This document shows positions 1 through 47,861 of a DNA stretch of 64,000 nucleotides, piece by piece (position 1 is the first letter of the stretch; every line of letters begins with the position of its first letter). Source of the stretch: Gammaproteobacteria bacterium (lineage in GTDB: Bacteria; Cyanobacteriota; Vampirovibrionia; Vampirovibrionales; JAJTHC01). The notes under the pieces are model-generated. The model worked only from the letters and a program-made list of their open reading frames with translations, made no database searches and was not told where the DNA came from. The stretch covers positions 2,115-66,114 of the forward strand of contig JBEISK010000004.1 of assembly GCA_040375445.1 (NCBI GenBank), in the 5' to 3' direction. The position numbers were made by a program, and so were the translations under genes.

Positions 1-108
1 ACGCCCCACCCTGCGACGTCTTCTTCCACCTGCTTGGCGTATGCAGTGGCAGAAACCGCAAGGTTTGTTGCTAAGCCGAGTAAAAGAGCATAATGAAAAA
101 ACAAGCGG

Positions 109-135
109 TTGACACCTCCTTTTGTTCATTATACT
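109..135 (+). promoter_or_regulatory. putative sigma70-type promoter of the stand-alone tRNA-Ile
   Basis: TTGACA at 109-114 and TATACT at 130-135. The 15-nt spacer is shorter than optimal. The site lies about 38 nt upstream of the tRNA 5' end. Confidence 0.35.
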
Positions 136-172
136 GTATGGGGAGTGGTTGGGGCATCGTCCCCGCAGGTGA

Positions 173-242
<70 letters not shown>

Positions 243-246
<4 letters not shown>

Positions 247-290
247 TTTTTAGACCCACCAGCGTTTTTAGAACCATAGAGGTTTACATT
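243..290 (+). repeat. direct repeat DR-A copy 1 (att-like; overlaps the last 4 nt of tRNA-Ile)
   Basis: CCCATTTTTAGACCCAC...TTTTTAGAACC...TTACA recurs at 11793-11840. The core is a 17-bp perfect match, and the rest is imperfect. Confidence 0.8.
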
Positions 291-293
291 TAT

Positions 294-992
294 TTGTTTT
301 CAAAAGAACTAATAATAAAGTCGAGTTTTTTCAATCAGCAAGACTTACAACAAGTTTTTCTTGATCTTCAGACTATTGGGGAGAAAGTTAGTTTTGAGTT
401 AAAGTGCAACGATACTGTTGTGACTCTTTTTAGTGCTGAAGAAATTGAAGAAAGATTAAGTCGGCTAGACTTTCCTGTGAGTTCTATAGAAATCGTGGTG
501 GGTGAGGGCTACTCGGATCGCATTGTTTTTTTGTTAGAGTGTAATTATGTTGGAAACCTTTTTTATAACCGTGATAGTAGAGTTAGCATAAAATCTAAAG
601 ATGAATCATTTGTAAAAAAAAATGAGATTTTTTTAAATGGTATGCTTCGTAAGTACGAAACAGGTTTTCCGTATACGATTCTTTACAATCCAAAACTATT
701 CTCAGTTAAATGGTTTATAGTTGTGTTTTGTGTTCTTTACATGTTCAAATCTTCCACACTAGATATTATTTCTATTCTCTTTAGTGCTCTTGGTTTTAGT
801 TGGTGGATTATTATTATATTGGAAGTGGCATTGAAACTCTTCTTCCCTTATTTAGCCATTGAGACAGAAAGGGTTCGCCCCAAGTCAGTAAAGATAAAAG
901 AATTTTTCCAAACTAGATTTTTAGACATGCTTTTATCTGGTGTAATTGGCGTGATTCTTGGTGTGTTTGCACAACGCTATTTTGGTTGCTGA
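294..992 (+). CDS. orphan membrane protein (cassette ORF X1): about 130-aa soluble N-domain plus about 3 TM helices
   Basis: ORF track entry with a TTG start at 294 and no in-frame ATG near the 5' end. Visibly AT-rich. Hydrophobic stretches include FIVVFCVLYMF, ILFSALGFSWWIIIILEVAL and LLSGVIGVILGVF. It ends exactly where recombinase homology stops. Confidence 0.5.
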   Translation: MFSKELIIKSSFFNQQDLQQVFLDLQTIGEKVSFELKCNDTVVTLFSAEEIEERLSRLDFPVSSIEIVVGEGYSDRIVFLLECNYVGNLFYNRDSRVSIKSKDESFVKKNEIFLNGMLRKYETGFPYTILYNPKLFSVKWFIVVFCVLYMFKSSTLDIISILFSALGFSWWIIIILEVALKLFFPYLAIETERVRPKSVKIKEFFQTRFLDMLLSGVIGVILGVFAQRYFGC

Positions 993-1110
993 TCTCAAGT
1001 CCGTTGCGTTTGGCATATTCTTCCAAAAGCCTGATTTGGGCTGGAATGGAGTAGCCTTCTTTTTCTTGTTCTCTTGAGGAGACTCGGGCGTATAAGACGG
1101 CTGGCTTCAT
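993..1110 (-). pseudogene. large serine recombinase, N-terminal fragment (about 39 codons)
   Basis: MKPAVLYARVSSREQEKEGYSIPAQIRLLEEYAKRNGLEI matches the catalytic-Ser N-terminus of resolvase/invertase-type recombinases. Homology breaks at about 992, and the rest of track ORF 913..1110 is read-through. Confidence 0.75.
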
Positions 1111-1120
1111 GGGTTTTTCC

Positions 1121-1170
1121 TTTCATGTGTACTTATGATATTATATCCCAATATGCCTATTTTTTAAATC
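1121..1170. repeat. direct repeat DR-B copy 1 (recombinase promoter/5'UTR block)
   Basis: TTTCATGTGTACTTATGATATTATATCCCAATATGCCTATTTTTTAAATC recurs at 12498-12553. On the minus strand it carries TATAAT, and an AAGGA SD follows just outside the block, ahead of the recombinase ATG at 1110. Confidence 0.8.
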
Positions 1171-1187
1171 ACATGAAAGTTTAAATA

Positions 1188-4100
1188 ATGACCACAAGCA
1201 CGCCCACCAAAACCTTGCATGATGTACTTGAACAATTCAGAGCCATGAGTACCAGTGAACGACAAAAAGGCGACAAGTTTGAACGCCTGATGTGTGCTTT
1301 TTTCAATACCGACCCCACCTATAAAGATTTGTTTAGCAACGTGTGGATGCTCAATGAATGGGAGGGGCGAAAAAATCACGGCAATTCAGGAAACGATGTT
1401 GGGATTGACCTTGTCGCAGAAGAACGCAACACAGGCGATTTATGGGCGATTCAATGTAAGTTTTATGACCCTCATCATACGCTTCAAAAAACAGATATTG
1501 ATTCCTTTTTTACGGCTTCAGGGAAAGAACCGTTTCGCAAGCGAATGATCGTCACCACGACAAACCGATGGGGCAAGCACGCTTTAGAAGCTTGCGAAAA
1601 TCAACAGATCCCCACGATTCGCTTGGGTATAGAAGAATTGGCTGAAAGCAAAATCGATTGGAGCCAATTTAATCTAAATCGCTTGGACAAGCTAGATTTA
1701 ACGCCTGCTAAAAAGTTACGTGATCACCAAATAGAAGCCCTAGAAGCCGTTCAAAAAGGCTTTGAAACGGCGGATCGTGGCAAGCTGATTATGGCGTGTG
1801 GAACAGGAAAAACCTTTACCTCCTTGAAGATAGCCGAAACCGTGGCTCCTCAAAAAGGGACGGTGCTGTTTTTAGTGCCTTCGATTTCCCTGCTTTCACA
1901 AAGCTTGCGAGAATGGACGAATGAACGAGAACACCCCTTCCACGCTTTTGCCGTGTGTTCTGATACCAAAGTGGGCAAGCCTAGCAAAGGCAAAGATGAA
2001 AATGAAGACATTAGCATCACCGATTTATGCTTCCCTGCCACAACAGATGCTAAATCCTTGATGAAACAGTTTAATCTTGCAAATAAACTAGATTCTCGCT
2101 GGAATGTGGTGTTTTCAACGTATCAATCGATTGAAGCGGTGTCGAATGCCCAAAAAGCTGGCTTGCCCGAATTTGACATGATTATTTGTGATGAAGCCCA
2201 CCGAACCACAGGAGCCACCCTTTCAGGAGCGGATGAATCGCATTTTGTGAAAGTGCATGACAACGCCTTCATTAAAGCGAAAAAACGCTTGTACATGACC
2301 GCCACGCCTAAGCTGTTTAAAGATGAAGTCAAAGCCAAAGCCCTTGAGAACGATGCCCTGCTTTGTTCCATGGATGACGAAAGCCTTTACGGCGTTGAAC
2401 TTTACAGGCTAGGATTCGGTAAAGCCGTTGAAAAAGGTTTATTAAGCGATTACAAAGTGCTGATTTTAGCCGTGGATGAAGGCTATATTCCCAAAACCAT
2501 GCAAGCCATTTTAACCGATGAAGACAATCAACTTAAATTGGAAGATGTGGCTAAAATTACAGGCTGTTGGAATGGGCTTGCCAAGCGGAATGTACACACG
2601 GAAGACGGCATGGATATTGGCAAAAACCCCATGCGTCGAGCGGTGGCGTTTTCTCGTTCGATTGCCGATTCTAAGAAACTTACGAACTTTTTTGTGCAAG
2701 TCGTCAATGAACACATTAAGCATATCCCCAGTGAAACGGAACCCTTGCGTTGTGAGCTGGATCACGTCGACGGGGGGATGAACTCGCTGATTCGTAACGA
2801 AAAACTATCGTGGTTGAAAGAAGAGACGCATGGCAATGTATGCCGTATTTTAAGCAATGCCCGATGCCTTAGTGAAGGCGTGGATGTCCCTTCGCTTGAT
2901 GCCGTGCTGTTTTTGAACCCTCGTAATTCTATGGTGGATGTGGTGCAATCCGTAGGGCGAGTCATGCGAAAATCTGAAGGCAAGGATTATGGCTACATTA
3001 TTTTGCCGATCGGGATTCCTGCTGGTGTTCCCCCTGAAGAAGCCCTCAAAGACAATCAAAAATATAAAGTCGTGTGGGATGTTCTGCAAGCCTTGAGGGC
3101 TCACGACGATCGCTTTAATGCCACGATTAACAAAATCGAACTCAATCAAAAAAAGCCTGACAATGTGCAAGTCATCGGCGTGGGGAGTCCTGAACAAGAA
3201 TCCGATACGTCTAAAGAAAAAAAGGCGAAAGATGCACAACAACTTAATTTAGCCTTAGGCAATTTAGAAGAATGGCGAGATGCTATTTATGCCAAAATCG
3301 TAACCAAATGCGGAGAACGCAAGTATTGGGAAACATGGGCGAAAGATGTGGCACAAATTGCCGAACGCCACGTTCTACGATTGACCCAGTTAATGAATGA
3401 ACCCAACGCCCCCTATAAAGACGTGTTTGAACGCTTTGTGCAAGGCTTACGCTTGAATTTGAACCCGAGCATAAGTGAAGCCGATGCCATTGAAATGTTG
3501 GCTCAACATTTGATTACTAAGCCTGTGTTTGATGCCCTGTTTGAAAATTATGCGTTTACCGAAGCCAACCCTGTTTCGCAAGCCATGCAACATATGTTGG
3601 ATATTTTAGACGGGCAAGGCATGGAAAAAGAACATCAATCCCTTGAAAAGTTTTACGAAAGTATTAAAAGCAAAGTCAGTGGGGTAGACAACGCCCAAGG
3701 TAAGCAGAAAATCATTTTGGAATTGTACGACAAGTTTTTTAAAACGGCGTTTCCTAAAGTGGTTGAAAAGCTTGGCATTGTATACACCCCCGTGGAAGTG
3801 GTGGATTTTATTATTCATAGTGCCAATGATGCCCTACAAAAAGAGTTTGGCAAAAGTTTTGGCGATGCTGGTGTGCATGTGCTAGACCCCTTTACAGGCA
3901 CTGGCACGTTTATGGTAAGGCTTTTGCAAAGTGGATTGATACCCCAAGCGGATTTGGCGAGAAAGTACCAAGAAGAATTGCACGCCAATGAACTGGTTTT
4001 GCTGGCGTATTACATTGCGGCGATTAACATTGAAGAAACTTACCACGGCTTAATGGCAGAAGACCGCTACACCCCCTTTGAAGGCATGGTGTTGACCGAT

Positions 4101-6155
4101 ACCTTTCAATTGACGGAAGGCGACGGCAAAATTGAAGGCGTGTTTCCTGACAACAGCACCCGAGCCAACAAGCAACGCCACAACGATATTCGAGTGATTA
4201 TCGGCAATCCGCCTTATGCTAATGCCCAAGAGAACCCCAGTGGAGGAAATAAGCAAGTTGAATACAGAAATTTGGATGCTCGTTTAAAAGAAACCTACAT
4301 TTTTAATTCTAAAAAATCAGACGGAAAAAGTAAAGCTTACGATTCTTATATTCGAGCGATACGGTGGGCAAGCGACCGCTTGAAAGAAAAGGGCGTGATT
4401 TGTTTTGTGACCAATGGCAGTTTTTTAGACGGCAATGCCATGGACGGCTTGCGTAAATGCTTGGCGGATGAGTTCACCAGCGTGCATGTCTTCAACCTAC
4501 GAGGCAATACTCGCACCAGTGGAGAAACCGCTCGCCAAGAAGGGGGACAAATTTTTTCTTCGGGTAGCCGAGCGACCATTGCCATTACCTTACTCGTCAA
4601 AAACCCCGACCGTGCCTTAGAACCCTCTCCCTTAGGGAGAGGGCAGGGTGAGGGAAACCACCAGCTCCAGTCAAACAGGGAATCCCTCCTCCCAACCTCC
4701 TCCCTAAGGGAGGAGGGGCAAGAAAGGGAGGGAGCGAAACCCACCGCCGAAATCTACTATCACGACATTGGCGATTACTTGGATCGCAAAGAAAAGCTAC
4801 AAATCATTGCGGATTTTAAAAGTATGGCACAGCTCCCCATGAAACGCCTAAAACCCAATAGTAGTCATGACTGGATTAACCAACGAGACCCTGCCTTTGA
4901 TAGTTTTTTACCGCTAGGAATAAAACGGAATAGTGCCAAAGAAATCACTATATTTGATACGTTTTCAATGGGTGTAAAAAGTAACAGGGATGATTGGGTA
5001 TACAATTTTTCTGAAAAAATTCTAGAATGTAATGTGAAGACAATGGTTGATTATTATAATGAGCAAGTAGTAGCATTTGATTATAAAACAATGGGTATCA
5101 TAAAGTTTTTAGAAAAAACACCTTCTACAAAAATAAAATGGACTGAGGATCTCATTAAAGGAGTCGAAAAAGGAAAAAAACTAGCTATTGACCAAAACTC
5201 AAGAATCAAGAGCTTGTATAGACCTTTCACAAAAGTATTCCATCAATATGACAAAAGCATAAATTGGACATTACATCTAATGCCTCAATTTTTCCCGACG
5301 GCGGAACATGAGAATTTGCTCATTTGTACAAATGGTGTTGGAATGCCAAAAGATTTCCAGCCACTTATCTCAAATGTTGTGACAGATGTTCAACTACAGC
5401 CAAATGGTCAATGTTTCCCACTCTACACCTATGAAAAGGTGGCTGAACACACAGGGGTCAACACCCAAACGTCTTTACTGGCATCCGAAACAGGCACGCT
5501 CATCAACGGCTATCGCCGTAAAGACAACATCCCCGACACGCAACTTTCCCACTTTCAAAGCCTCTATGCCGACCCCAGCATCACGAAAGAAGACATCTTC
5601 TATTATGTCTATGGCGTCTTGCATTCGCCTGAATACAAGGAACGTTTTGAAGCGGATTTAAAGAAAATGTTGCCTCGCTTGCCTTTGACGAAAATCACGG
5701 CGGATTTTTGGCAATTTAGTAAAATTGGTCGTGAATTGGCGTATTGGCATTTGAATTATGAAAGCATCGAACCGTATGATTTAGAAGAAGTCAAACAGGG
5801 CTTGGTGCTAGACGAATACGACTTTTACCGAATCGACAAAATGAGCTTCCCCAAGGGTCAAAAATATGGCGACAAACCCGACACGATTATCTATAATAAT
5901 CGCTTAAGTTTACAGGGCATTCCTCCCCAAGCGTGGGATTATGTGGTCAATGGTAAGCCTGCCCTAAGCTGGATTATGGAACGTTATAAAGTTGATGTGC
6001 ATAAGGAAAGTCAGATTAAGAACGATCCGAACTTGTGGTGTGTGGAACAGGAAAACCCAAGGTACATCGTGGATTTGGTGAAGCGTGTGACTCGTGTGGC
6101 GGTGGAAAGCGTCCGTTTGGTTGCCATGCTCCCTGCCTTGAATGAACAAGTCTAG
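1188..6155 (+). CDS. Type ISP restriction-modification enzyme (Mrr-like nuclease + SF2 helicase-like ATPase + N6-adenine methyltransferase + TRD), LlaGI-like
   Basis: The N-terminal Mrr-type nuclease has GIDLVAEE...AIQCK. Helicase motifs are ACGTGKT, ICDEAH, TATP and QSVGRVMR. Methylase motifs are LDPFTGTGTF and IGNPPY. All lie in a single 1655-aa ORF. Confidence 0.88.
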   Translation: MTTSTPTKTLHDVLEQFRAMSTSERQKGDKFERLMCAFFNTDPTYKDLFSNVWMLNEWEGRKNHGNSGNDVGIDLVAEERNTGDLWAIQCKFYDPHHTLQKTDIDSFFTASGKEPFRKRMIVTTTNRWGKHALEACENQQIPTIRLGIEELAESKIDWSQFNLNRLDKLDLTPAKKLRDHQIEALEAVQKGFETADRGKLIMACGTGKTFTSLKIAETVAPQKGTVLFLVPSISLLSQSLREWTNEREHPFHAFAVCSDTKVGKPSKGKDENEDISITDLCFPATTDAKSLMKQFNLANKLDSRWNVVFSTYQSIEAVSNAQKAGLPEFDMIICDEAHRTTGATLSGADESHFVKVHDNAFIKAKKRLYMTATPKLFKDEVKAKALENDALLCSMDDESLYGVELYRLGFGKAVEKGLLSDYKVLILAVDEGYIPKTMQAILTDEDNQLKLEDVAKITGCWNGLAKRNVHTEDGMDIGKNPMRRAVAFSRSIADSKKLTNFFVQVVNEHIKHIPSETEPLRCELDHVDGGMNSLIRNEKLSWLKEETHGNVCRILSNARCLSEGVDVPSLDAVLFLNPRNSMVDVVQSVGRVMRKSEGKDYGYIILPIGIPAGVPPEEALKDNQKYKVVWDVLQALRAHDDRFNATINKIELNQKKPDNVQVIGVGSPEQESDTSKEKKAKDAQQLNLALGNLEEWRDAIYAKIVTKCGERKYWETWAKDVAQIAERHVLRLTQLMNEPNAPYKDVFERFVQGLRLNLNPSISEADAIEMLAQHLITKPVFDALFENYAFTEANPVSQAMQHMLDILDGQGMEKEHQSLEKFYESIKSKVSGVDNAQGKQKIILELYDKFFKTAFPKVVEKLGIVYTPVEVVDFIIHSANDALQKEFGKSFGDAGVHVLDPFTGTGTFMVRLLQSGLIPQADLARKYQEELHANELVLLAYYIAAINIEETYHGLMAEDRYTPFEGMVLTDTFQLTEGDGKIEGVFPDNSTRANKQRHNDIRVIIGNPPYANAQENPSGGNKQVEYRNLDARLKETYIFNSKKSDGKSKAYDSYIRAIRWASDRLKEKGVICFVTNGSFLDGNAMDGLRKCLADEFTSVHVFNLRGNTRTSGETARQEGGQIFSSGSRATIAITLLVKNPDRALEPSPLGRGQGEGNHQLQSNRESLLPTSSLREEGQEREGAKPTAEIYYHDIGDYLDRKEKLQIIADFKSMAQLPMKRLKPNSSHDWINQRDPAFDSFLPLGIKRNSAKEITIFDTFSMGVKSNRDDWVYNFSEKILECNVKTMVDYYNEQVVAFDYKTMGIIKFLEKTPSTKIKWTEDLIKGVEKGKKLAIDQNSRIKSLYRPFTKVFHQYDKSINWTLHLMPQFFPTAEHENLLICTNGVGMPKDFQPLISNVVTDVQLQPNGQCFPLYTYEKVAEHTGVNTQTSLLASETGTLINGYRRKDNIPDTQLSHFQSLYADPSITKEDIFYYVYGVLHSPEYKERFEADLKKMLPRLPLTKITADFWQFSKIGRELAYWHLNYESIEPYDLEEVKQGLVLDEYDFYRIDKMSFPKGQKYGDKPDTIIYNNRLSLQGIPPQAWDYVVNGKPALSWIMERYKVDVHKESQIKNDPNLWCVEQENPRYIVDLVKRVTRVAVESVRLVAMLPALNEQV
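4616..4742. repeat. MITE-like palindromic repeat inserted in frame inside the Type ISP gene
   Basis: CCCTCTCCCTTAGGGAGAGGGCAGGGTGAGGGAAACCACCAGCT...CCTCCTCCCTAAGGGAGGAGG. It has the same architecture as the intergenic copies at 50601 and 54576. It is translated as ...PSPLGRGQGEGNHQLQ...SSLREEGQ... Confidence 0.7.
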
Positions 6156-6161
6156 GGGGGA

Positions 6162-6668
6162 ATGATGAGATTTGATTTTTCTAAGTTTTGGAATAATCCG
6201 AATCTTTGGGTTCATGGGGTTCTATTATTAGTTTTGGGTATTTTTCTTAATTCGCATGTTGAATCTTGCAATGAAAAAGCTAAAGAGGAAATCTCGCCTG
6301 CCACGCTTCAAATCTTGCCCTATTTGCATCAAAAACAAGACTCTACCCTAGCAAAGAATATTTATGACGCATTAACAACAACAGAATTAGAAAAAATACA
6401 TATCGAATGGGAAAACACACCTGTTGTTCATGTATCCCCTCCCGAAATTGATAGTATTTACTGTACTCCTTCTAGTGCCAAACACGTTAGGAGTATTGTT
6501 GAGTTATTGCACAAGAAGAATATTATGAGAGTCGACGCGATTTTTCCTGCCCCAAAGCAACAATCAAGGCTTTTACTTTTTGGTCATAATAAAAATTATT
6601 CTGACAATACAAAAATTACGCCTCAAGAAATAGATAATGCACAAGCCCTTTGCACTAGAAAAAAATAA
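6162..6668 (+). CDS. orphan small membrane/secreted protein (AT-rich cassette ORF)
   Basis: The track ORF starts 6 nt after the R-M stop. N-terminal hydrophobic segment WVHGVLLLVLGIFL. No recognisable motifs. Confidence 0.45.
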   Translation: MMRFDFSKFWNNPNLWVHGVLLLVLGIFLNSHVESCNEKAKEEISPATLQILPYLHQKQDSTLAKNIYDALTTTELEKIHIEWENTPVVHVSPPEIDSIYCTPSSAKHVRSIVELLHKKNIMRVDAIFPAPKQQSRLLLFGHNKNYSDNTKITPQEIDNAQALCTRKK

Positions 6669-6680
6669 TGGCAATGCCCC

Positions 6681-7478
6681 TTGTGTGGCTATCCTGATAC
6701 GTTTGATCTTAAGGCGGAAGCTGGCAAGGTCTTACTTTATTGCCATGCCTGCCAAGCTCCCTTTGAAGCCTTCCTTCAGTATTTTCAATCGCTGGATTTA
6801 GGGCAAGCATCTAAGCCCTATAAAGCCATGCCACAAGCAAGCCTTGCGAAGGTCTCGCACACTAGCAAGCAAGAAACCTTGTCGTATGCCCAAGGCATAT
6901 GGGAGGCATCTAAAGCACTAGAAGGCACGCTTGCCGAACGCTATTTAGTATCAAGAGGCATCACGCTTAAAAACTTGGATGCCTTACGCTTTCATCCGTC
7001 TTTAAAGCATAGCGGAAGCCGTTTGTATCACCCTGCTTTAGTGGCGAAAATCACCACAGAAGACGGCGTGTTGACAGGCATCCACCGCACCTATCTCGCA
7101 TCAAACGGTAAAGGCAAGGCATCGGTTTTAGACCCCAAAATGATGCTAGGCAACACAAGGGGAGCAAACATCCATTTAAGCCCCCTCACAGGCGACACAC
7201 TCGCCGTATGTGAAGGGATTGAAACAGGGTTAAGCATCCTACAAATGACAGGCATCCCGACGTGGGCGTGTCTTTCCATTGCTGGCATGGCAAACCTTGT
7301 GATTCCTAAAAGCATTCGCACCTTGCTAATTTGTGGGGACAATGACCCATCAGGTATAACCGCCTCGCTTGCCTTAAAAGCCCGAGCGATTCAAGAAGGC
7401 TATGCCGTGAAACACATCACCCCCCAAGAAGCAGGCTTTGATTTTAACGATGTTTTACAAAAGGAGGCAACCCAATGA
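6681..7478 (+). CDS. Toprim-domain DNA primase with P4-type zinc ribbon (5' end probably truncated)
   Basis: The C4 ribbon is (C)PLCG...x17...CHAC. The Toprim region is LAVCEGIETGLS...LLICGDNDPSG. The only in-frame start is TTG 6681, which lies after the first Cys codon at 6675. Confidence 0.75.
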   Translation: MCGYPDTFDLKAEAGKVLLYCHACQAPFEAFLQYFQSLDLGQASKPYKAMPQASLAKVSHTSKQETLSYAQGIWEASKALEGTLAERYLVSRGITLKNLDALRFHPSLKHSGSRLYHPALVAKITTEDGVLTGIHRTYLASNGKGKASVLDPKMMLGNTRGANIHLSPLTGDTLAVCEGIETGLSILQMTGIPTWACLSIAGMANLVIPKSIRTLLICGDNDPSGITASLALKARAIQEGYAVKHITPQEAGFDFNDVLQKEATQ

Positions 7479-9031
7479 CCGATATTCAAGCACTGATTAA
7501 CCAGTCCCCACTAGAAACCGCTGAAACGGTTGAAGCATCCAAATGGGGAACACCAAGACCGATTCAAAGCGTTTTGCTCCCCGTGGATGACCTTGATTTA
7601 AGCCTCGTGCCTCATGAGGCACGGGCATGGCTTGAAGATGAAGCCGAACGACTACAAGTCAAACCTGACTTTATAGCGGTGTCCTTAATGGTCGTTTTAA
7701 GTAGCGTTATAGGCAGGCAAGTGGCGATTCGCCCCAAAGCAAAGGACGATTGGATCGTGGTGCCTAACTTATGGGGCATGATTATTGGCAGACCGTCCAG
7801 CTTTAAAAGCCCTAGCGTGGCAGGTGTTTTAAAACCTTTGAATCGCTTACAAGCTTTATCGATTCAAGAAAATGAACACGCTTTAAATGAGTTTCAAGCC
7901 CTTGAAAAACGAAAAGACTTGGAACGAAAAGTGTTGACGGACAAACTAAAACGAACCATGAAGGCAAACCCCGATACGGTGGATATAGAAGCCGAAACCC
8001 TCGTCATTGAAGAAAAATGCAAGCTCCCCCCTAAGCCTGCTTGCAAGCGTTATATCGCCAATGATATTACCGTTCAAAAGCTAGGGGAACTCTTGAGAGA
8101 CAATCCCAATGGCGTGCTGGTGTTTCGAGACGAACTTTCCGCCTTTTTACACAAGCTAGACAAAGAAGGACACGACCAAGACCGTAGCTTCTTCTTAGAA
8201 GCGTGGAACGGCACCAACAGCTATTCAGACGACACCATAAGCCGTGGCACGGTTTATATCGAATCGTGTTGTGTGTCTGTTTTTGGAGGCATACAACCCA
8301 CCGTGCTTGGCAAGTGGCTCGCCGATGCCATTCACCACACAGGCAAAGATGACGGCTTTATGCAACGCTTTCAGCTCATGGTCTACCCCGACCCCTTGCG
8401 AGAGATTCAAGGCGTGGATCGTTACCCGAATAAGCAAGCCCAAAAGACTTACTTTGAATTGGTGAAGCGTTTAAGCACGCTTTCCCCTGAACTTATTGGT
8501 TGCATTCAAGAAGAAGAGGAATTGCCTTATTTGAGATTCGCCCCTGAAGCCCAAGTGATTTTCGATGATTGGTATTTAGACTTAAGGCAAAGGCTTTCAA
8601 GCCCTGAAGGTGACAGCACCTTAGAAGCTCATTTTATGAAGTATTCGTCTTTAGTGCCGTCTTTGGCGTTGATTTGTCATTTGGCGAATGGACATCAAGG
8701 ACAGGTGTCGAAAGAAGCCTTGTTACAAGCCCTTGCATGGAGTGAATACCTTGCAAGCCATGCCAAGCGGATTTATGCACTAGGGCAGAATCATCATTTG
8801 ACGGTGGCTCATGCTTTGTTGAAACGTCTTAAGGCAAAAGAACTTCTGAATCCTTTTACCTTGCGAGAAATTAAGCGTAAGCACTGGCAAGGCATGAGCG
8901 AACCCAAAACGCTTGAAGAGGCGTTGGACACCTTAGAAGAGCATGGCTACTTGCGAAAAGAAGAGAATCGCCCTTTAATAGGTCGTCCGAGTGTTCAGTA
9001 TTACATCAATCCTATAGTGTTCGATAGATGA
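7475..9031 (+). CDS. DUF3987-type primase-associated helicase-like protein
   Basis: ATGA overlap with the primase gene. It is roughly 70 percent identical by eye to the C-terminal two thirds of 43849..46125, for example PRPIQSVLLPVDD, VVPNLWGM and CHLANG. Confidence 0.75.
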   Translation: MTDIQALINQSPLETAETVEASKWGTPRPIQSVLLPVDDLDLSLVPHEARAWLEDEAERLQVKPDFIAVSLMVVLSSVIGRQVAIRPKAKDDWIVVPNLWGMIIGRPSSFKSPSVAGVLKPLNRLQALSIQENEHALNEFQALEKRKDLERKVLTDKLKRTMKANPDTVDIEAETLVIEEKCKLPPKPACKRYIANDITVQKLGELLRDNPNGVLVFRDELSAFLHKLDKEGHDQDRSFFLEAWNGTNSYSDDTISRGTVYIESCCVSVFGGIQPTVLGKWLADAIHHTGKDDGFMQRFQLMVYPDPLREIQGVDRYPNKQAQKTYFELVKRLSTLSPELIGCIQEEEELPYLRFAPEAQVIFDDWYLDLRQRLSSPEGDSTLEAHFMKYSSLVPSLALICHLANGHQGQVSKEALLQALAWSEYLASHAKRIYALGQNHHLTVAHALLKRLKAKELLNPFTLREIKRKHWQGMSEPKTLEEALDTLEEHGYLRKEENRPLIGRPSVQYYINPIVFDR

Positions 9032-9185
9032 AACAGGCTATGAGGCTATTCTAGGAGCCTAGATTTTTTTGTGCGGGCGTGTAGTTGAGACCTACATAAC
9101 CAAACAAAAAAATCGTAGCGACAACGAAGAGACCATAGACGGTTTTATATAGCGGATACTATTAGTTTGTTGGGGGAAGAAGATC

Positions 9186-9593
9186 ATGGGTAAGTGGTTG
9201 CAAGCCTTGAAAGAAGAGCGTGCCAATTCGTATGTTTTAGAGGTGGAAACAAACGAAAAAAATAAAAACACACCCATGCACCCAGTGCCAAAAGTGTCAA
9301 AACCCCCTTTTGGCACTTTTGACACTTCCCCCCATAGTCCTTTTGAAAAAAATACACCTATTTCACCAACGGATGTTCACACGTTGATCCGCTATTTGAA
9401 GCCTAAAGGGTTTGTGTCCATGTACACGGTGGCGATAGGCTTAAACTGGCAGGTGGCTCGTGTGCAAGCGGTGGCTTTGCACCTGAAGCACCAGCTATGG
9501 CTCTTAGACGACAAGTCCTCCATTGCCCTCACTAGCTTGGCACGGCGTGATTGGGTGAAATCGAGATCTAAACTTTCGCAGGTTTCGCCATAG
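9186..9593 (+). CDS. conserved island protein, possible wHTH DNA-binding protein
   Basis: The residues from HPVPKV to TSLARR are nearly identical to 43503..43847. The C-terminal tail runs into the iteron-like repeat and may be spurious. Confidence 0.6.
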   Translation: MGKWLQALKEERANSYVLEVETNEKNKNTPMHPVPKVSKPPFGTFDTSPHSPFEKNTPISPTDVHTLIRYLKPKGFVSMYTVAIGLNWQVARVQAVALHLKHQLWLLDDKSSIALTSLARRDWVKSRSKLSQVSP

Positions 9594-9695
9594 GGGGGGG
9601 AGGGGCGAGGTAAAAACAATTTGAAAATATAGTGAAAACCGTATGTTGGGAACATTCACGCATCCGTGCTTGGGAAGTTTTGGGTAAAACCTAAT
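9570..9695. repeat. conserved noncoding module (iteron-like GCGAAACCTGCGAAAGT + G-rich/AT-rich block), copy in island 1
   Basis: The reverse complement of 9570-9590 matches the GCGAAACCTGCGAAAGTT repeats of island 2. Positions 9593-9690 align to the reverse complement of about 41480-41585. Confidence 0.7.
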
Positions 9696-9705
9696 TACTG
9701 CAAAA

Positions 9706-9790
9706 GTCAACCTATAAGTTGACAAAGTATTGTATTTTGTCAACTTATAGGTTACTATTAAATGATAAAAAAGAAACTTAAAGGTTGACA
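9706..9790 (+). promoter_or_regulatory. palindromic operator-like sites upstream of the HTH gene
   Basis: GTCAAC-CTATAA-GTTGAC at 9706-9723, GTCAAC-TTATAG-GTTAC at 9739-9755, a GGTTGAC half site at 9783-9789, and TTGACAAA...TTTGTCAA at 9719-9743. Confidence 0.5.
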
Positions 9791-9792
9791 AA

Positions 9793-10260
9793 ATGAAGTC
9801 TCGTTCCATTGAAGCCTGTCGACAACTCGACAAACGCTTCCAATCCATTAACGCAAGCACCCTATTTGAACGCCCTGTAAAGGGCTGGATTAAAGCCATT
9901 CGTGAAGCCTTAGGCATGACGCTCGAACAGCTTGGCAATCGCATGAAGGTGTCAAGGCAACAAGTCGGCTACTTAGAGCAAGACGAACTCAAAGGCAGTG
10001 TCACCCTTGCCACCATGGAACGCATCGCTAATGCCTTGGGGTGTCGATTCGTTTATGCGTTGATTCCTGAAACCAGCTTGCAAGACAAAGTCCATGCACA
10101 AGCACGACAAAAATCCCTTGCTTTGCTTGCACAAACCAGTCATAGCATGAATCTTGAAGCACAAGGCGTATTGCCTGAAGAACAAGAAGAACAGCTTCAA
10201 AGCCTGATCGATGACTTCCTAACAGGCAAGCCCTCTCGCTTGTGGGAGGATACAGAATGA
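9793..10260 (+). CDS. mobile mystery protein A (XRE-type HTH)
   Basis: HTH segment IREALGMTLEQLGNRMKVSRQQVGYLE. ATGA-coupled to a Fic gene, which is the arrangement of the TIGR02612/TIGR02613 pair. Confidence 0.75.
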   Translation: MKSRSIEACRQLDKRFQSINASTLFERPVKGWIKAIREALGMTLEQLGNRMKVSRQQVGYLEQDELKGSVTLATMERIANALGCRFVYALIPETSLQDKVHAQARQKSLALLAQTSHSMNLEAQGVLPEEQEEQLQSLIDDFLTGKPSRLWEDTE

Positions 10261-10844
10261 GCGATTTATTCCAAACCGATGATGCATCCACCCCTCTCAC
10301 TGAAGAAGAAAAAAGCGATTTAATTCCTTCTTACATCACGTTTAGAGATGAACTCAACGCCGTTGAGCAAAGCAACATTCTTGAAGCTGAACGTGCTTAT
10401 TTCATTCGCAAGCCTAAAACGATTTTAGAGATACACTTTCTTAAAAAGCTTCATAAACAGATGTTTGGTAACGTGTGGAAGTGGGCAGGCAATTTTCGTA
10501 AAACCGCTCGTAATATCGGGGTGGAAGCGTTTCGTATTCAAACGGAGCTAAAAAAGCTCGTGGATGATGTTCATTTTTGGATCGAGCAAGGCACTTACCC
10601 CCCTGATGAAATAGCGACTCGTTTTCATCATCGTTTGGTGTGGGTTCATCCGTTTCCTAATGGCAATGGTCGTCATGCTCGCTTGGCAACCGATTTGTTA
10701 TTGCGTCAACTCGGGCAGGCAAGATTCACGTGGGGAAGTGTCACCTTAACGTCTATGAATGACACTCGCACGACTTATGTACAAGCCCTTCAAAAGGCTG
10801 ACAAGGGAGATATTTCCGCCTTACTTGCTTTTGTGCGTTCTTAA
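10257..10844 (+). CDS. mobile mystery protein B (Fic-domain protein)
   Basis: Fic motif HPFPNGNGRHARL. The ATG at 10257 overlaps the TGA of the upstream gene. The track ORF begins 15 nt earlier. Confidence 0.8.
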   Translation: MSDLFQTDDASTPLTEEEKSDLIPSYITFRDELNAVEQSNILEAERAYFIRKPKTILEIHFLKKLHKQMFGNVWKWAGNFRKTARNIGVEAFRIQTELKKLVDDVHFWIEQGTYPPDEIATRFHHRLVWVHPFPNGNGRHARLATDLLLRQLGQARFTWGSVTLTSMNDTRTTYVQALQKADKGDISALLAFVRS

Positions 10845-11119
10845 GACCGTGAATCGTGGATGCCTTGCATCAAGAGCGTGGCTCGCAGGCGTTCTATTTG
10901 AGCTTCAATCGAATAGTAGCCATGCGTTAAATTGCCTTGCCTTTGGGCTTGCTTGCCTTCCACCGTTTTCGCCCCTGTGGATTTACCCCCGTGAAAACGA
11001 CACCGACCGTTCTTCATCGCAGGTTGAACACAAGGCAAACCGCTTCTTTTACTGGTGGCTCCGCATTGCTTAAAGGAGTGAAGTGTTTGGACAAGGGGTA
11101 GATCCTCATGTTTTCGCAT
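10841..11119 (-). CDS. HGGxSTG-motif protein
   Basis: CGATSKRSGLPCVQPAMKNGRCRFHGGKSTGAKT. Paralog of 41682..41963. The start was chosen at the Met that aligns with the paralog. Confidence 0.7.
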   Translation of the reverse strand: MRKHEDLPLVQTLHSFKQCGATSKRSGLPCVQPAMKNGRCRFHGGKSTGAKTVEGKQAQRQGNLTHGYYSIEAQIERLRATLLMQGIHDSRS

Positions 11120-11696
11120 GGACTCCCCCTCCCCCGATGTTGCCAATCATCGCTTGCCCGTGATTTTCAACGTTGAAATGTTGAACTTGAATCACTTGCT
11201 TGCCGTGGTTACGATACTTCACCAAGCTTTCGTTTAAGGTGGTAAAGGTCTTCAATAGCTTGGTGCTACGGTTGATTAAGGATTCCACATGACCAGCAGG
11301 TAATTGATCATTCAGACTACGACGCATCATCACCAAAGCAAGATGATTCACACTCACCATTTGAGAAGCCAACATCGTTTCGGTACTGTCATTGGCGGCA
11401 ATACCTCTCAATAGGGCAAGCCCTGCATTCATGTTATCTTCCCCCATAATCGCCACCAGTTGAGTAAGCACATAGTGATGCACATCATCATCCGCCACGC
11501 CAATGGTTTCAAGTAGTTGGGTGTAATGATCCACAATGTTGGCTTTTGGATTCTTCAGCTCGATCCCTCCTCCTTCCCCGACCTTTAGCTTGACGGGTTC
11601 CAAGTGGTTTCGTTCGAGGCGTTTAAACTTGGCTTTCCCTGCTTCGTCAAGAGAAGCGAGATCGGCTTTAGCTTTTTCAAGGGCATCTTTTTGCAT
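11106..11696 (-). CDS. conserved island protein, partner of the HGGxSTG protein
   Basis: Lies upstream of and overlaps the HGGxSTG gene. The C-terminal ...VQHFNVENHGQAMIGN resembles ...QQVNVNDGGQAVVTQ of 41967..42443. Confidence 0.6.
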   Translation of the reverse strand: MQKDALEKAKADLASLDEAGKAKFKRLERNHLEPVKLKVGEGGGIELKNPKANIVDHYTQLLETIGVADDDVHHYVLTQLVAIMGEDNMNAGLALLRGIAANDSTETMLASQMVSVNHLALVMMRRSLNDQLPAGHVESLINRSTKLLKTFTTLNESLVKYRNHGKQVIQVQHFNVENHGQAMIGNIGGGGVHAKT

Positions 11697-11738
11697 GGTA
11701 AGGACTCCTGTTTCTTTAGGCGACTTGCTTTAAAAGGA

Positions 11739-11768
11739 TTGACAACCACTCGCCGTTTTCTCTACAAT
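11739..11768 (+). promoter_or_regulatory. near-consensus sigma70 promoter reading out of island 1 into ORF X2
   Basis: TTGACA at 11739-11744, an 18-nt spacer, then TACAAT at 11763-11768. Confidence 0.55.
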
Positions 11769-11792
11769 ATGTTCGGAACTTGTCTACAATGT

Positions 11793-11840
11793 CCCATTTT
11801 TAGACCCACTCACCATTTTTTAGAACCTTGGGGATCTTAC
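11793..11840 (+). repeat. direct repeat DR-A copy 2
   Basis: CCCATTTTTAGACCCAC...TTTTTAGAACC...TTACA, matching 243-290. Confidence 0.8.
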
Positions 11841-11841
11841 A

Positions 11842-12489
11842 ATGCATGAGTCTGGTTACTATAAGATAAAATTAGATTCTTTAGCAAAAGAAATACTTGA
11901 AAAATCCACCCAACCACAACATAATTATGAGTCTTCTTATCTTGACTTGGAGTTTGATGTTTTTCTTGTCGCACATATCATAAATAAACTTTTAAATTGG
12001 GAAACAAAGCTTTCGGATGAGTTTGAAAAAGAACAATTTTCCTTAGAAAAGTTACCTCGTAAATCCTTAGAAGAATCAGGCAAGATAGATATTATGAATA
12101 ATAATCGATGGGATGAGTTTTACAATGCAGACAAAACACATAAAGAACAACGAAAGGCTTCTTTTATTTGTGACCAGTTAAGACATTCATTCATTTTTTA
12201 TATAACCTCAGAGCCAGTTATGACGGATAATCCTCTTAGTGAAAGCCATGTCTTTAAAGGTTTTGGGTTTAATTCAGACAAAACAAAAAACGAAGGTTTG
12301 TTTTACATCGAAATGAACGAATTTTTGAAAATGATAAATCTCGCTGTTTCTGATGCTATAATAAGTTCGGAATACCGTAGGAATCCTGAAACAGGTACAA
12401 TGCAGATTAAACAGACTCGTTTAAGTTTAAATCCTCGTGAAGTTGAAGAATGGATTAGAACAGGCGAAGAAAGGTTCTATGGACCATAA
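11842..12489 (+). CDS. orphan soluble protein (cassette ORF X2)
   Basis: ATG immediately after DR-A copy 2, with a GGGGA SD-like element inside the repeat. Visibly AT-rich. No recognisable motif. Confidence 0.55.
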   Translation: MHESGYYKIKLDSLAKEILEKSTQPQHNYESSYLDLEFDVFLVAHIINKLLNWETKLSDEFEKEQFSLEKLPRKSLEESGKIDIMNNNRWDEFYNADKTHKEQRKASFICDQLRHSFIFYITSEPVMTDNPLSESHVFKGFGFNSDKTKNEGLFYIEMNEFLKMINLAVSDAIISSEYRRNPETGTMQIKQTRLSLNPREVEEWIRTGEERFYGP

Positions 12490-12497
12490 ACAGCTGA

Positions 12498-12553
12498 TTT
12501 CATGTGTACTTATGATATTATACTCCAATATGCCTGTTTTTTTAGTTTAAATC
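12498..12553. repeat. direct repeat DR-B copy 2 (orphan recombinase promoter block)
   Basis: Matches 1121-1170 with a few substitutions and a 6-bp insertion. No recombinase codons follow it. Confidence 0.8.
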
Positions 12554-12840: not shown

Positions 12841-12925
12841 ACAACATTCCTTTATTACATCTTCATACAACACAACATTGTACTTTGTTTATTATAGCAT
12901 ATGTAATAATATAAGGAACTAATGA

Positions 12926-13117
12926 TTATTTACTAGACCCAATGTAATTGTTGGAACCCTTGCTGATGATACGATTAAAGGTCTTGGTGGCAACGACATC
13001 CTCAATGGTGGAGCTGGTGATTCCGCGACGTTAAAATCAGGTTCTTTACAAGCGGCAACATTTGTCGCTCCTGTGGATGCAACCGTCTTGGTTTTGAACA
13101 CCTTGACACTTGTCTAG
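12926..13117 (+). pseudogene. start-less fragment with an RTX-type calcium-binding nonapeptide
   Basis: The frame is open from 12926 to the TAG at 13115 and reads ...TLADDTIKGLGGNDILNGGAGDS... It has no ATG/GTG/TTG start, and the track shows only an antisense ORF here. Confidence 0.3.
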
Positions 13118-13495
13118 TTTTCTAATTAAAACGATGAAAACAGGACTTATTTTTACGAGAAAGCCCTGTTTCTTTGTAACAATTGTGTAAATTAATATCA
13201 ACAATAAATGACGTTAAATTCGGCACTGCTTTCTCAGTACTAATGAAATAAGCTTAGAAAGAGTCTACTGGGATATTTTTTACAAGGGTGCTTTACAAAA
13301 TAAACCTTTACTTTTTTATTTTTTCTACTACACTCAGAATATGTTGTGCTTTCATAAATAATTGAAACCTCCCAATCTCAAAAGGGAGTCATCTATATTT
13401 TTTACTTTAGGCTCATATAAGGAGTTTTCACCATTTCTTTTAAAGATCTTCCCACTCTATACTCAGAAACGCGACCATGGGGTACTTTTTTTGTA

Positions 13496-13798
13496 TTGCA
13501 AGATGAAGCGCATTTCAAACTTAAAAGAATTGTGGTAGAGCCACAACAACGTTTAAGCTTACAAAAGCATCATAAGCGTGAAGAGCATTGGCTGGTGACT
13601 CGAGGCGAAGCTATTGTGACGGTTGGTGAGCAAGATCACCCCGTAAAGCCAGGAACCTACATTCATATTCCAAAAGGGGCAGTGCATCGCATTAGCAACC
13701 CTTTTGAAACCTCTGTCGAGTTTATAGAAGTACAGTTAGGCGAGTACTTTGGTGAAGACGATATTATTCGCCTGCAAGACGACTACAACAGAGCATAA
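13496..13798 (+). CDS. cupin-domain protein (mannose-6-phosphate isomerase type II C-terminal-like)
   Basis: Similar to the C-terminus of the manC product (RPWG..., QKHHKREEHW, IPKGAVHRISNP, EDDIIRLQDDY). The frame is open back to 13421 with AAGGAG at 13419-13424, so the true start is probably upstream. Confidence 0.7.
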   Translation: MQDEAHFKLKRIVVEPQQRLSLQKHHKREEHWLVTRGEAIVTVGEQDHPVKPGTYIHIPKGAVHRISNPFETSVEFIEVQLGEYFGEDDIIRLQDDYNRA

Positions 13799-13874
13799 AA
13801 CCATGATAGGGACATCCATCTCATCTCTACAATTGAATAGGGTCTGTTAAACTTTAGACTAGCTTCTTGCTTTT

Positions 13875-39622: not shown

Positions 39623-39638
39623 ACATAAGCCTCCCAAT

Positions 39639-39670
39639 AACAAAGAAAAATACTCCCAAGGGGATTCGAA
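39639..39670. repeat. 32-bp direct repeat containing a partial tRNA-Glu 3' end (distal att site)
   Basis: AACAAAGAAAAATACTCCCAAGGGGATTCGAA is identical to 48495-48526. The last 20 nt correspond to the 3' end of the tRNA-Glu at 48507-48579. Confidence 0.85.
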
Positions 39671-39797
39671 TGGTGGCATCTAGTGTTTGCAACAATTCTA
39701 TATTCTTTGATATAAATTATTTTTATTCTATTACACTACATTTTACAGCGAAAATAGATTGATGCAATTCTCTTGAAATTGATGGTTTTTGACGAAA

Positions 39798-39830
39798 AAT
39801 TACACAGGAATTACACACGAATTACACCAA
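39798..39830 (+). promoter_or_regulatory. three tandem 11-bp AATTACAC repeats (iteron-like)
   Basis: AATTACACAGG AATTACACACG AATTACACCAA, with a one-helical-turn period, in a 630-bp noncoding stretch. Confidence 0.5.
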
Positions 39831-39959
39831 GTCAAAATCCCTTTTGACGTTGCCTCTTTTTTTCGGGCTTGGCTGGTTGTCATGTAAAGTAAATCCTGAT
39901 TTTTTTACATGATGTGCATTATGTGTAAAAGAAAAGGCGTTTCGTTTACACCTATTTTT

Positions 39960-40005
39960 AAAATCGTCCCCATTGCGATTGCGAAACCTGCGAAAGTTGC
40001 GAAAG
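39960..40005 (+). promoter_or_regulatory. GCGA-type iteron-like repeat, copy 1 of island 2
   Basis: AAAATCGTCCCCATTGCGATTGCGAAACCTGCGAAAGTTGCGAAAGC. Confidence 0.5.
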
Positions 40006-40172
40006 CTCTTGCCTATACCTTGCGGAGATTAACCCTTGTTTACTCCGCAAAAAATGCGGAGATTTATCCGTAAGACGATTATATTCTTGTTATCCTGTCA
40101 TATTGACGCTTTAAACCTATCACGTATGAGAGGATAATCTAATAAAAATGATAGGATAAAATAGCAAGATCT

Positions 40173-40220
40173 AAAATCGCCCCCATTGCGATTGCGGATT
40201 TGCGAAACCTGCGAAAGTGG
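40173..40220 (+). promoter_or_regulatory. GCGA-type iteron-like repeat, copy 2 of island 2
   Basis: AAAATCGCCCCCATTGCGATTGCGGATTTGCGAAACCTGCGAAAGTGG. Confidence 0.5.
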
Positions 40221-40309
40221 AATCTGCCTTATCGTTTAATCAGATACTTTATTATTAAACTTTAATGTGTTATCATTTAACAACTAAAACACTTATTAAA
40301 GGATAATTT

Positions 40310-41476: not shown

Positions 41477-41682
41477 AACGTTTCAGTTTTACCCAAAACT
41501 TCCCAAACACACATGCGTGCGTGTTGCCAACATGCGGTTTTCAATATATTTTCAAATACTTTTTACCCCGCCCCTCCCCCCTTTGCCGAAAATAAGAAAA
41601 GGGGATAGGTGCGACTATTAACTAAACGGTTTTTCAATTCGCCCCGCCTGCGATTGCGAAACCAGCGAAAGTTGCGAAAGTT
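41475..41682. repeat. conserved noncoding module, island 2 copy (inverted relative to 9570-9695)
   Basis: The reverse complement of about 41480-41585 aligns with 9593-9690. A GCGATTGCGAAACCAGCGAAAGTTGCGAAAGT repeat lies at 41650-41682. Confidence 0.7.
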
Positions 41683-41963: not shown

Positions 41964-41966
41964 TTT

Positions 41967-42443: not shown

Positions 42444-42537
42444 GCCATGCCCTCCGTGTTGGTTAGGGGTATTATAGCACGTTGTGGGGTTGATTAAAAG
42501 CTAGTGAATACGCTTGATTTACAAGAGAGTGTTAAGA

Positions 42538-43847: not shown

Positions 43848-43848
43848 G

Positions 43849-47860: not shown

Positions 47861-47861
47861 T

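Follow-up and report, generated by a model that had tools for sequence, protein, structure and literature searches.

The 64-kb stretch of contig JBEISK010000004.1 analysed here (the window) comes from a Vampirovibrionales genome and carries, directly after a tRNA-Ile gene near its left end, a composite region (243-12553) with restriction-modification (R-M) and replication genes (Table 1). A sequence-only reading had described it as a mobile, composite tRNA-Ile island, delimited by a direct repeat (here DR-A) and carrying defence cargo on a primase/helicase backbone. All genes listed between the DR-A copies, namely a recombinase remnant, a Type ISP R-M enzyme, a Toprim primase, a DUF3987 protein, a helix-turn-helix (HTH)-Fic pair and an HGGxSTG pair, were recovered by domain or profile matches; the last pair does consist of two genes, although only one of the two proteins carries the HGGxSTG domain. 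The recombinase is site-specific as described, its type being that of a large serine recombinase (LSR) and not of a tyrosine integrase. Most of the region (~985-11792) is taken up by a degraded member of an island family of the Vampirovibrionales, ~11 kb long and adjoining the tRNA-Ile gene. We consider it very probable that elements have integrated here in layers, the 3' end of this tRNA gene being a hot spot for them, with a degraded, tRNA-targeting LSR island as the main occupant.

The reported recurrence of 243-290 at 11793-11840 with a perfect 17-bp core proved exact. The 17-mer CCCATTTTTAGACCCAC was found at 243-259 and 11793-11809 and nowhere else in the window, even with three mismatches allowed (0.18 matches expected by chance), and its first four bases at 243-259 are the last four nucleotides of the tRNA-Ile. 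The similarity runs on through a second block, TTTTTAGAACC, up to ~290 and ~11840. A second pair of direct repeats, DR-B (1121-1165 and 12498-12542; 45 nt, 93% identity), is no less informative than DR-A. From ~12544 onwards the sequence is a chromosomal terminator and flank, common to the related loci L013 and JBIKTR. The plot of GC content and k-mer skew that had been proposed as a check did not set the island off, since backbone GC content and 4-mer usage are not distinct from those of the chromosome and only the orphan open reading frames (ORFs) X1, X2 and p168 stand out.

Table 1. Positions of the features of the tRNA-Ile region, of a second island in the window and of two slot occupants in relatives (UTR, untranslated region; MITE, miniature inverted-repeat transposable element)
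Feature	Position	Strand	Remarks
tRNA-Ile(GAT), integration target	173-246	+	ARAGORN; same tRNA ahead of the JBIKTR sister island
DR-A, left copy	243-290	+	att core 243-259 and native 'B-right'-type arm; attB-like
X1, orphan ORF	294-992	+	232 aa; hydrophobic C-terminal part; 33% GC; stands where the recombinase gene body would be
LSR gene 5' relic, codons 1-42	985-1110	-	translation MKPAVLYARVSSREQEKEGYSIPAQIRLLEEYAKRNGLEI; 88% identical to residues 1-43 of the JBIKTR 507-aa LSR
DR-B, LSR gene promoter and 5'UTR	1121-1165	-	left border of cargo slot 1; kept beside intact LSR in JBIKTR and L020
LSR promoter, TTTAAA-17-TATAAT	1168->1140	-	
Slot 1	~1166 to ~6666		Type ISP and p168 in the window; Type III R-M in JBIKTR
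Type ISP R-M enzyme	1188-6155	+	1655 aa; slot 1; Pfam domain set, PADLOC
MITE-like palindromic element	4609-4757		in frame inside the Type ISP gene, between methyltransferase and specificity domains
p168, orphan ORF	6162-6668	+	slot 1; 35% GC; in frame with Toprim ORF, lone TAA (6666-6668) between
Toprim/DUF7146 primase, 5'-truncated	6681-7478	+	Pfam; PHROG 'DNA primase'
DUF3987 helicase (replication module)	7475-9031	+	PF13148, E=3.5e-82; 96% identical to JBIKTR protein
Dispersed repeat with hairpin 9062-9114	9013-9171		between DUF3987 and p135 genes
p135, conserved backbone ORF	9186-9593	+	91% identical in JBIKTR, 77% in island 2
Candidate ori or protein-binding site	9285-9325		four GTGYCAAAA 9-mers, two direct and two inverted, around CCCCC; inside p135
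Slot 2	9549-10853	+	HTH-Fic in the window; 178-aa ORF, HGG-like ORF and AbiD in JBIKTR
HTH	9793-10260	+	TIGR02612 'mobile mystery protein A', 166.7 bits (cut-off 122.6)
Fic	10242-10844	+	TIGR02613 'mobile mystery protein B', 255.5 bits (cut-off 124.4)
HGGxSTG-domain protein, backbone gene	10841-11146	-	NF041373, 54 bits (cut-off 29)
p196, HGGxSTG partner, backbone gene	11106-11696	-	all-helical
P-left arm of island	11697-11792	+	kept in JBIKTR attR and L182 attP
DR-A, right copy (intact attR)	11793-11840	+	27-bp identity block 11793-11819, then native B-right arm
X2, orphan ORF	11842-12489	+	215 aa; 33% GC; older layer beyond attR; 83%-identical homologue after attR in JBIKTR
DR-B', LSR promoter/5'UTR relic	12498-12542	-	without recombinase gene; 93% identical to DR-B; composite region ends here
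Island 2 SoFic	40310-41476		
Island 2 HGG-like ORF	41721-41966		
Island 2 p135 homologue	43521-43847		92.8% nt identity to 9258-9548
Island 2 PrimPol(NrS-1 HBD)::DUF3987 fusion	43849-46125	-	
Island 2 LSR C-terminal relic	47832-48527		
X3, slot occupant	L016 ~1-424		
X4, slot occupant	L007 623-1735		

Sister island, attachment sites and unoccupied relatives

At the same tRNA-Ile in contig JBIKTR010000006.1 (loci L008 and L006, which are contiguous; also L019 and L099), a sister island was found with an intact 507-aa LSR gene on the minus strand, encoding Resolvase, Recombinase and Zn_ribbon_recom domains. Its order is tRNA-Ile, one 70-bp partial tRNA copy, LSR, DR-B (single-copy here), Type III Mod and Res, a 392-aa ORF, a 294-aa ORF, a 297-aa Toprim primase, DUF3987, p135, a 178-aa ORF, an HGG-like ORF, AbiD, HGGxSTG and p196, followed by attR, an X2 homologue and the same chromosomal flank as in the window. 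The shared backbone, consisting of the Toprim primase, the DUF3987 helicase, p135, the HGGxSTG protein and p196, is 93-96% identical between the two islands, and the segments between are unrelated, with sharp borders. This alternation of conserved backbone and unrelated segments defines two cargo slots with interchangeable genes.

Five related Vampirovibrionales genomes formed the comparison set, in which the chromosomal flanks are 92-95% identical to those of the window, and they are therefore close relatives. The island body is absent from three relatives (L013, L016 and L007). In L016 the tRNA-Ile site is unoccupied, the tRNA being followed by one partial copy, attB and then a different ORF, X3, and in L013 and L007 the site holds relics only; the island is thus polymorphic among close relatives. 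A scan of species-representative genomes with the 17-mer recovered six loci in four Vampirovibrionales metagenome-assembled genomes, together with single chance matches in unrelated taxa. Every Vampirovibrionales copy of the core lies at tRNA-Ile, at a partial tRNA-Ile copy or at an attR or island end, so that neither a gene order common to all relatives nor a common dispersed repeat is at hand, and the sister island and the three relatives without the island body bear out the description of a mobile, composite island at tRNA-Ile.

Alignment of the junctions recovered all four types of attachment (att) site around a common block of ~27 bp, CCCATTTTTAGACCCACTCACCATTTT. In attB (L013, L016) the tRNA 3' end is followed by CCCATTTTTAGACCCACTCACCATTTT and TTAGAACC, and in attP (L182) the block stands between CTACGATGT and CGGCTATCCAATC. 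The attL of JBIKTR consists of the tRNA, a variant block and CGGCTATCCAATC, leading into the 3' end of the LSR gene, and attR (window 11784-11830; also JBIKTR) consists of the P-left arm ending in CTACAATGT, then CCCATTTTTAGACCCACTCACCATTTT and TTAGAACC. As judged from the aligned junctions, this quartet appears to be the signature of site-specific recombination at the tRNA 3' terminus, and the distribution of arm variants among the JBIKTR junctions would put the crossover at the terminal CCA or immediately behind it. The two DR-A copies had been taken as the ends of the island, and they do delimit it. The right copy is an intact attR. The left one, by alignment, belongs with the attB-type sequences found in L013 and L016; it does not share the P-right arm CGGCTATCCAATC that the JBIKTR attL and the L182 attP have. 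Being attB-like and not attL, it leaves the DR-A copies without an excisable attL/attR pair.

Two observations concern the att sites of the relatives. In L182, the attP-type junction (9780-9915; P-left, core and P-right) lies in a chromosomal contig with EF-P, TsaDE and PurL nearby, a precise deletion has removed the LSR gene from its own 3' end to DR-B, and there is no tRNA within 10 kb. Furthermore, relatives have between one and three 70-bp units in tandem after tRNA-Ile (L011 4282-4396, L013 1482-1650, L016 458-545, L008 776-846, L006 7212-7290). Each consists of 24 nt of downstream flank, ending in GTTGACA, which resembles the -35 region of the tRNA's own promoter, and a 46-nt tRNA 3' half with a mutated anticodon loop; both DR-A copies of the window hold collapsed versions of these units.

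Cargo, backbone and decay of the window island

The Type ISP protein contains all five Pfam domains in order (Mrr_cat_2, ResIII, ISP_coupler, MTase, Type_ISP_C), matches LlaBIII (4xqk) and LlaGI (5ffj) with E=0, and has intact Walker A, DEAH, NPPY and methyltransferase (MTase) motif I by inspection. It is therefore predicted to be a Type ISP enzyme with a nuclease, a superfamily 2 (SF2) helicase, a coupler, an N6-adenine MTase and a C-terminal specificity domain. The domain order is that of LlaGI and LlaBIII (Mrr nuclease, SF2 helicase, coupler, gamma-type MTase, target recognition domain), from which it differs by an in-frame insert of ~40 aa derived from the MITE-like element between the MTase and the target recognition domain. 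This insert has two terminal hairpins and folds with z=-2.5, is missing from the DET50b Type ISP orthologue, has a 76%-identical copy at 54576-54689, and splits the profile and PDB matches at ~aa 1142.

In the replication module, the Toprim ORF lacks ~32 N-terminal codons, including the first Cys of the zinc-ribbon CxxC, and homology to the 297-aa JBIKTR primase starts at 6667, right after the TAA, at QCPLCGYPD. A member of the DUF3987 family, AgaPH, has been shown experimentally to be a 5'-3' helicase (PMC11724360). The repeat after the DUF3987 gene is absent from JBIKTR, with copies in L011, L016 and L020 (three in L020). The sequence-only reading had also invoked an iteron-like origin, without coordinates, for which two candidates were considered. 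The palindromes at 9709-9794 were rejected as an origin; they lie directly upstream of the HTH gene, inside the exchangeable cargo block, and look like the operator of that gene. The GTGYCAAAA 9-mer occurs eight times in the window (2.5 expected), with seven of the copies in two clusters, one at 9285-9325 and one in island 2, and the DNA sequence of the 9-mer block, unlike that of its flanks, is conserved in JBIKTR, DET50b L022 and 43744-43784 of the window; the cluster at 9285-9325 would thus be the better origin candidate.

The HTH and Fic genes are adjacent and overlapping, as in pairs of mobile mystery proteins A and B, and the upstream palindromes are as expected of an autoregulated pair. 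The Fic protein matches the PADLOC candidate-defence models PDC-S04, which are the basis for ascribing a putative defence role to the pair. In other members of the family, the slots are filled differently. In DET50b, one island (L021) carries a PDC-S13 candidate protein with a Type ISP enzyme and a second (L022) an unannotated cargo block, and the L020 island, which lies at tRNA-Ala, has a Type III R-M system (Mod and Res) in slot 1.

The HGGxSTG protein shows an invariant C-C-C-H in the alignment, and its homologues are all small, stand-alone hypothetical proteins. Its model (pLDDT 78) gave no significant fold match, with an insignificant likeness to the MCM10 zinc finger only, and no mention of the term 'HGGxSTG' was found in the literature searched. 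For p196, a full HMMER search retrieved 3436 homologous clusters, without annotation, and a word-indexed search close relatives only; p196 had no Pfam, PHROG, NCBIfam, PADLOC or PDB sequence match, 55 scanned members gave no Pfam signal and two PHROG memberships, and a Foldseek search of PDB and BFVD with the AF2 model (pLDDT 86) gave nothing significant. In Alphaproteobacteria, too, the pair is found together with LSRs. In L188 and L189, a tyrosine-integrase/PrimPol-DUF3987 island and an AlpA/primase island, HGGxSTG homologues each come after a short ORF in the position of p196. Since it is found with LSR, tyrosine-integrase and AlpA/primase islands, the pair looks like a generic module of self-replicating islands. 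A p196-HGG-Fic-HTH block was also observed in the related island L183 (1-11656) on another chassis, with a sigma-70-like protein, a helicase, ArdA and a Type I R-M system, and modules therefore seem to be shuffled between island types.

The window copy is a relic of an LSR integrative element, without a full-length LSR. The LSR gene ends after codon 42, its remainder being replaced by X1 on the opposite strand; there is neither a P-right arm nor an attL; compared with L013, the left DR-A copy has a small deletion; and of the 392-aa and 294-aa genes, which are conserved in both JBIKTR and DET50b, neither is present. The element would no longer be able to excise, even with a recombinase supplied in trans, and appears locked in place, and what remains of it can be read as a resident defence locus with a predicted Type ISP R-M system and a predicted HTH-Fic pair. 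A second, mostly deleted module and tandem accretion had been proposed for 11793-12553, and X2 and a copy of the LSR promoter without its gene are indeed present there. This segment is the residue of an earlier element. With X2 and DR-B' as an older layer, the island is composite, and the locus would have grown by successive insertions at one tRNA.

A hypervariable slot of one gene follows the att core, occupied in different genomes by four unrelated low-GC orphan ORFs, X1-X4. No family match was found for X1, X2, X4 and p168 in the libraries searched, which included Pfam, PADLOC, PHROG and NCBIfam, and X3 is cut by a contig end; L013 has a 52%-identical X1 homologue in the corresponding position. 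After X1 and after X4 comes an LSR 5' relic, broken off within codons ~37-50. As the first ~130 nt of the LSR gene are kept at the DNA level even between distant members, these break points may mark the limit of the homology used in element exchanges.

Some further features of the window were noted. The strongest sigma-70-like promoter of the region (11739-11768, TTGACA-18-TACAAT) lies in the P-left arm and points out of the island, over attR, towards X2; were the island circular, transcription from this promoter would run antisense into the recombinase gene. The stretch between the island and metF (12900-13800) contains gene debris, including an RTX-repeat fragment (~12940-13110) with GLGGNDILNGGAGD and a stand-alone, 100-aa copy of the ManC C-terminal cupin domain (13496-13798), and in the first 39 kb of the window no other stretch is as distant from the chromosome in 4-mer usage. 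At 39637-48527, oppositely oriented, the window holds a second member of the island family, at tRNA-Glu (48506-48580, minus strand). Direct repeats of 35 nt (39637-39671 and 48493-48527), which include 22 nt of the tRNA-Glu 3' end, flank this island, and its composition is more atypical than that of the first island.

The recombinase clade and related elements

Homologues of the 507-aa LSR, sharing 36-92% identity with it, were gathered from the genomes and metagenomes of many phyla. Downstream sequence was sufficient for 129 of them, and in 105 of these a convergent tRNA gene adjoins the LSR 3' end (-120 to +250 nt of the last aligned codon). The commonest targets are tRNA Asn, Gln and Asp, with 18 tRNA species (anticodons) in all, and 105 of the 158 tRNA genes in the ~2 Mb of collected loci sit at an LSR 3'-end position. 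In all 122 examined cases (L019, L020, L022 and 119 other loci) the LSR ORF reads into the tRNA in antisense, with a median overlap of 41 nt, and integration or excision would therefore change the C-terminus of the enzyme. The LSR tail (...DSN...) is the antisense translation of the tRNA T-loop GTTCGAATC. Tentatively, we propose that the LSR may belong to a phylum-spanning clade specialised on tRNA gene 3' ends that seems not to have been described as such. In the literature on serine recombinases at tRNA genes we found isolated mentions only, namely 27 Prochlorococcus elements and one Paracoccus phage.

The LSRs of JBIKTR (at tRNA-Ile) and L020 (at tRNA-Ala) are 92% identical, with about half of the differences in residues ~189-300, which belong to the recombinase and zinc-ribbon domains. 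In LSRs these domains contact DNA. That such similar enzymes occupy different tRNA genes suggests easy retargeting, perhaps through recognition of the conserved T-arm, acceptor and CCA end. The metagenome LSR scan, used for the clade tRNA statistic only, returned no relative above 51% identity and no population variants of the window island. A second copy of the tRNA 3' end was not found within 10 kb upstream of the other LSRs, so those islands must be longer than 10 kb or have a very short shared core.

The island is an ordinary kind of element, of known type. Its closest known analogues appear to be the tycheposons, tRNA-targeting, cargo-carrying integrative elements of Prochlorococcus, 27 of 937 of which use an LSR and 97% a tyrosine recombinase (bioRxiv 10.1101/2020.12.28.424599). 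The likeness is one of architecture. Both integrate at tRNA gene 3' ends with flanking or tandem partial tRNA copies, which here comprise the 70-bp partial tRNA-Ile copies in JBIKTR, L011, L013 and L016 and the 35-nt repeat at island 2, the DR-A repeat of the window holding only 4 nt of tRNA. In both, degraded remnants pile up at the tRNA (in the window X1 with the recombinase relic, and X2 with the DR-B' relic) and variability is highest nearest to it, and both combine an integrase, primase/helicase replication genes and a cargo module, here Toprim, DUF3987 and two slots. The hosts are akin as well, the lineage here being the non-photosynthetic sister group of the cyanobacteria. Different from the tycheposons, the island has an LSR instead of the mostly used tyrosine recombinase, predicted anti-phage cargo instead of nutrient acquisition genes and a replication module of Toprim and DUF3987.

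The staphylococcal cassette chromosomes (SCC, SCCmec), whose CcrAB/CcrC LSRs act at the 3' end of rlmH, are similar in that an LSR inserts the element at the 3' end of a conserved housekeeping gene with short direct repeats, and in that tandem accretion and recombinase-less remnants give composite islands. They differ in target (rlmH, not tRNA) and host phylum, and the LSR is only a distant relative, reaching 101 bits against the CcrB model (cut-off 900). SCC elements also have a different putative replication module.

Alternative explanations and proposed course

Besides site-specific insertion at the tRNA, the unit that was gained and lost could be bounded by DR-B (1121-12497) and have moved by homologous recombination between the 45-bp repeats, not at DR-A. 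We regard this as unlikely, though with a real chance. The repeats are direct and 93% identical, and L013 has the appearance of a deletion product, in which the tRNA and an attB-like arm are followed by the X1 homologue and a recombinase relic in the window layout and then directly by the chromosomal flank, the state that recombination between DR-B and DR-B' would leave. However, DR-B is the promoter and 5'UTR of the LSR gene and JBIKTR has one copy of it only, both the att quartet and the association with tRNA genes across the clade speak for the DR-A core as the place of insertion, and deletion explains loss, not arrival. Such recombination can coexist with insertion at the DR-A core.

It is improbable that the island is a phage satellite (P4-like, like a phage-inducible chromosomal island (PICI), or a PICI-like tycheposon) induced by a helper phage and packaged in its capsids, with HGGxSTG/p196 serving in packaging, like the small terminase TerS, or in helper interference. 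The sequence-only reading had likened the element to P4, PICIs or integrative mobilisable elements; the functional likeness stands, and none of the defining genes was found. The small size (11-14 kb) and the primase-helicase module fit a satellite, P4-like satellites and PICIs being ~10-14 kb, tRNA-adjacent, with a primase-helicase and an adjacent origin (here a candidate one) and with variable anti-phage cargo (here predicted) at fixed slots. The HGGxSTG protein weakly matches a small-terminase PHROG (phrog_9231, E=1e-5, domain region only), its gene follows a short ORF also in AlpA/primase and P4-type-integrase islands, and PICI-like tycheposons carry terS. Against this, no capsid, portal, P4-type integrase, Sid/Psu/Delta, cos or Stl-type module was detected by Pfam, PHROGs and NCBIfam, no AlpA or proven packaging gene accompanies the island, and no helper phage is known. 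The p196 family is nearly without PHROG membership (2/55), and for p196 as for the HGGxSTG protein no fold match reached significance, be it to TerS or to any other protein. Of the PICI features only the primase/helicase is present, the hint of terS being the weak PHROG match with negative fold searches. The tyrosine-integrase/P4 model was ruled out by the type of recombinase.

An integrative mobilisable element, transferred by conjugation with the help of a co-resident conjugative element, is very improbable. The Toprim/DUF7146 region does resemble the C-terminal part of TraI-type relaxase/helicases, and island L183 has an anti-restriction gene, ArdA, such as conjugative elements typically carry. 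Yet the TraI-model match covers the Toprim region only, at 83 bits far below the cut-off of 930, and no relaxase, coupling protein, type IV secretion gene or recognisable oriT was found in the window island or JBIKTR by Pfam, PHROG and NCBIfam. A static chromosomal defence locus or prophage remnant with chance or dispersed repeats, as the chromosome-like GC and 4-mer usage of the backbone and the want of an intact recombinase in the window might suggest, has next to no chance, given an exact 17-mer present twice (far fewer than 0.2 copies expected) and located at the tRNA and attR in several genomes, polymorphic island presence, an intact sister island and no phage structural genes.

We therefore retain the LSR island at tRNA-Ile and propose the following course. 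The LSR would be encoded at the end of the island next to the tRNA, the gene extending with its 3' end into the tRNA, and the enzyme would recombine attP with the tRNA 3' terminus and the sequence downstream, attP and attB sharing the block CCCATTTTTAGACCCACTCACCATTTT. The excised circle would be replicated by the Toprim primase and the DUF3987 helicase, probably from the 9-mer cluster in p135. Slot 1, between the recombinase promoter (DR-B) and the primase gene, and slot 2, between p135 and the HGGxSTG gene, would hold interchangeable, predicted anti-phage genes, and the island would thereby spread defence among strains. Loss of the LSR, of the P-right arm and attL, of the two genes beside the primase and of the primase 5' end would then have fixed the window island as a defence locus.

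Several points weigh against this course. Neither excision nor replication nor a circular form has been seen in any member of the family, and the sole attP-type junction (L182), chromosomal and with the recombinase gene deleted, may be a tandem or rearranged relic and not a circle. The 27-bp identity between attP and attB exceeds what a serine recombinase needs, and no recombination directionality factor was identified. The proposed course accounts neither for the route of transfer between cells nor for the origin of the junction between X1 and the recombinase relic. An intact recombinase may exist outside the window, in which case the missing attL arm would still block normal excision. Finally, the anti-phage activity of the cargo is predicted by homology, and the Type ISP gene carries the 40-aa insertion.

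Most of what is known of the Vampirovibrionales (Melainabacteria) comes from metagenomes, and there is next to no description of their mobile elements or phage defences. If the LSR clade is real, it would represent a general tRNA-directed integration module used by many island types, could supply serine integrases with conserved 'landing pads' in every genome, and, as an LSR family at tRNA 3' ends in more than 10 phyla, would complement the classic association of tyrosine integrases with tRNA genes. The locus and its relatives offer a worked example of how defence genes may be exchanged in the Vampirovibrionales on a conserved integration-replication chassis, and of the fate of such islands, in which the recombinase is lost and the element becomes fixed as a chromosomal defence locus.

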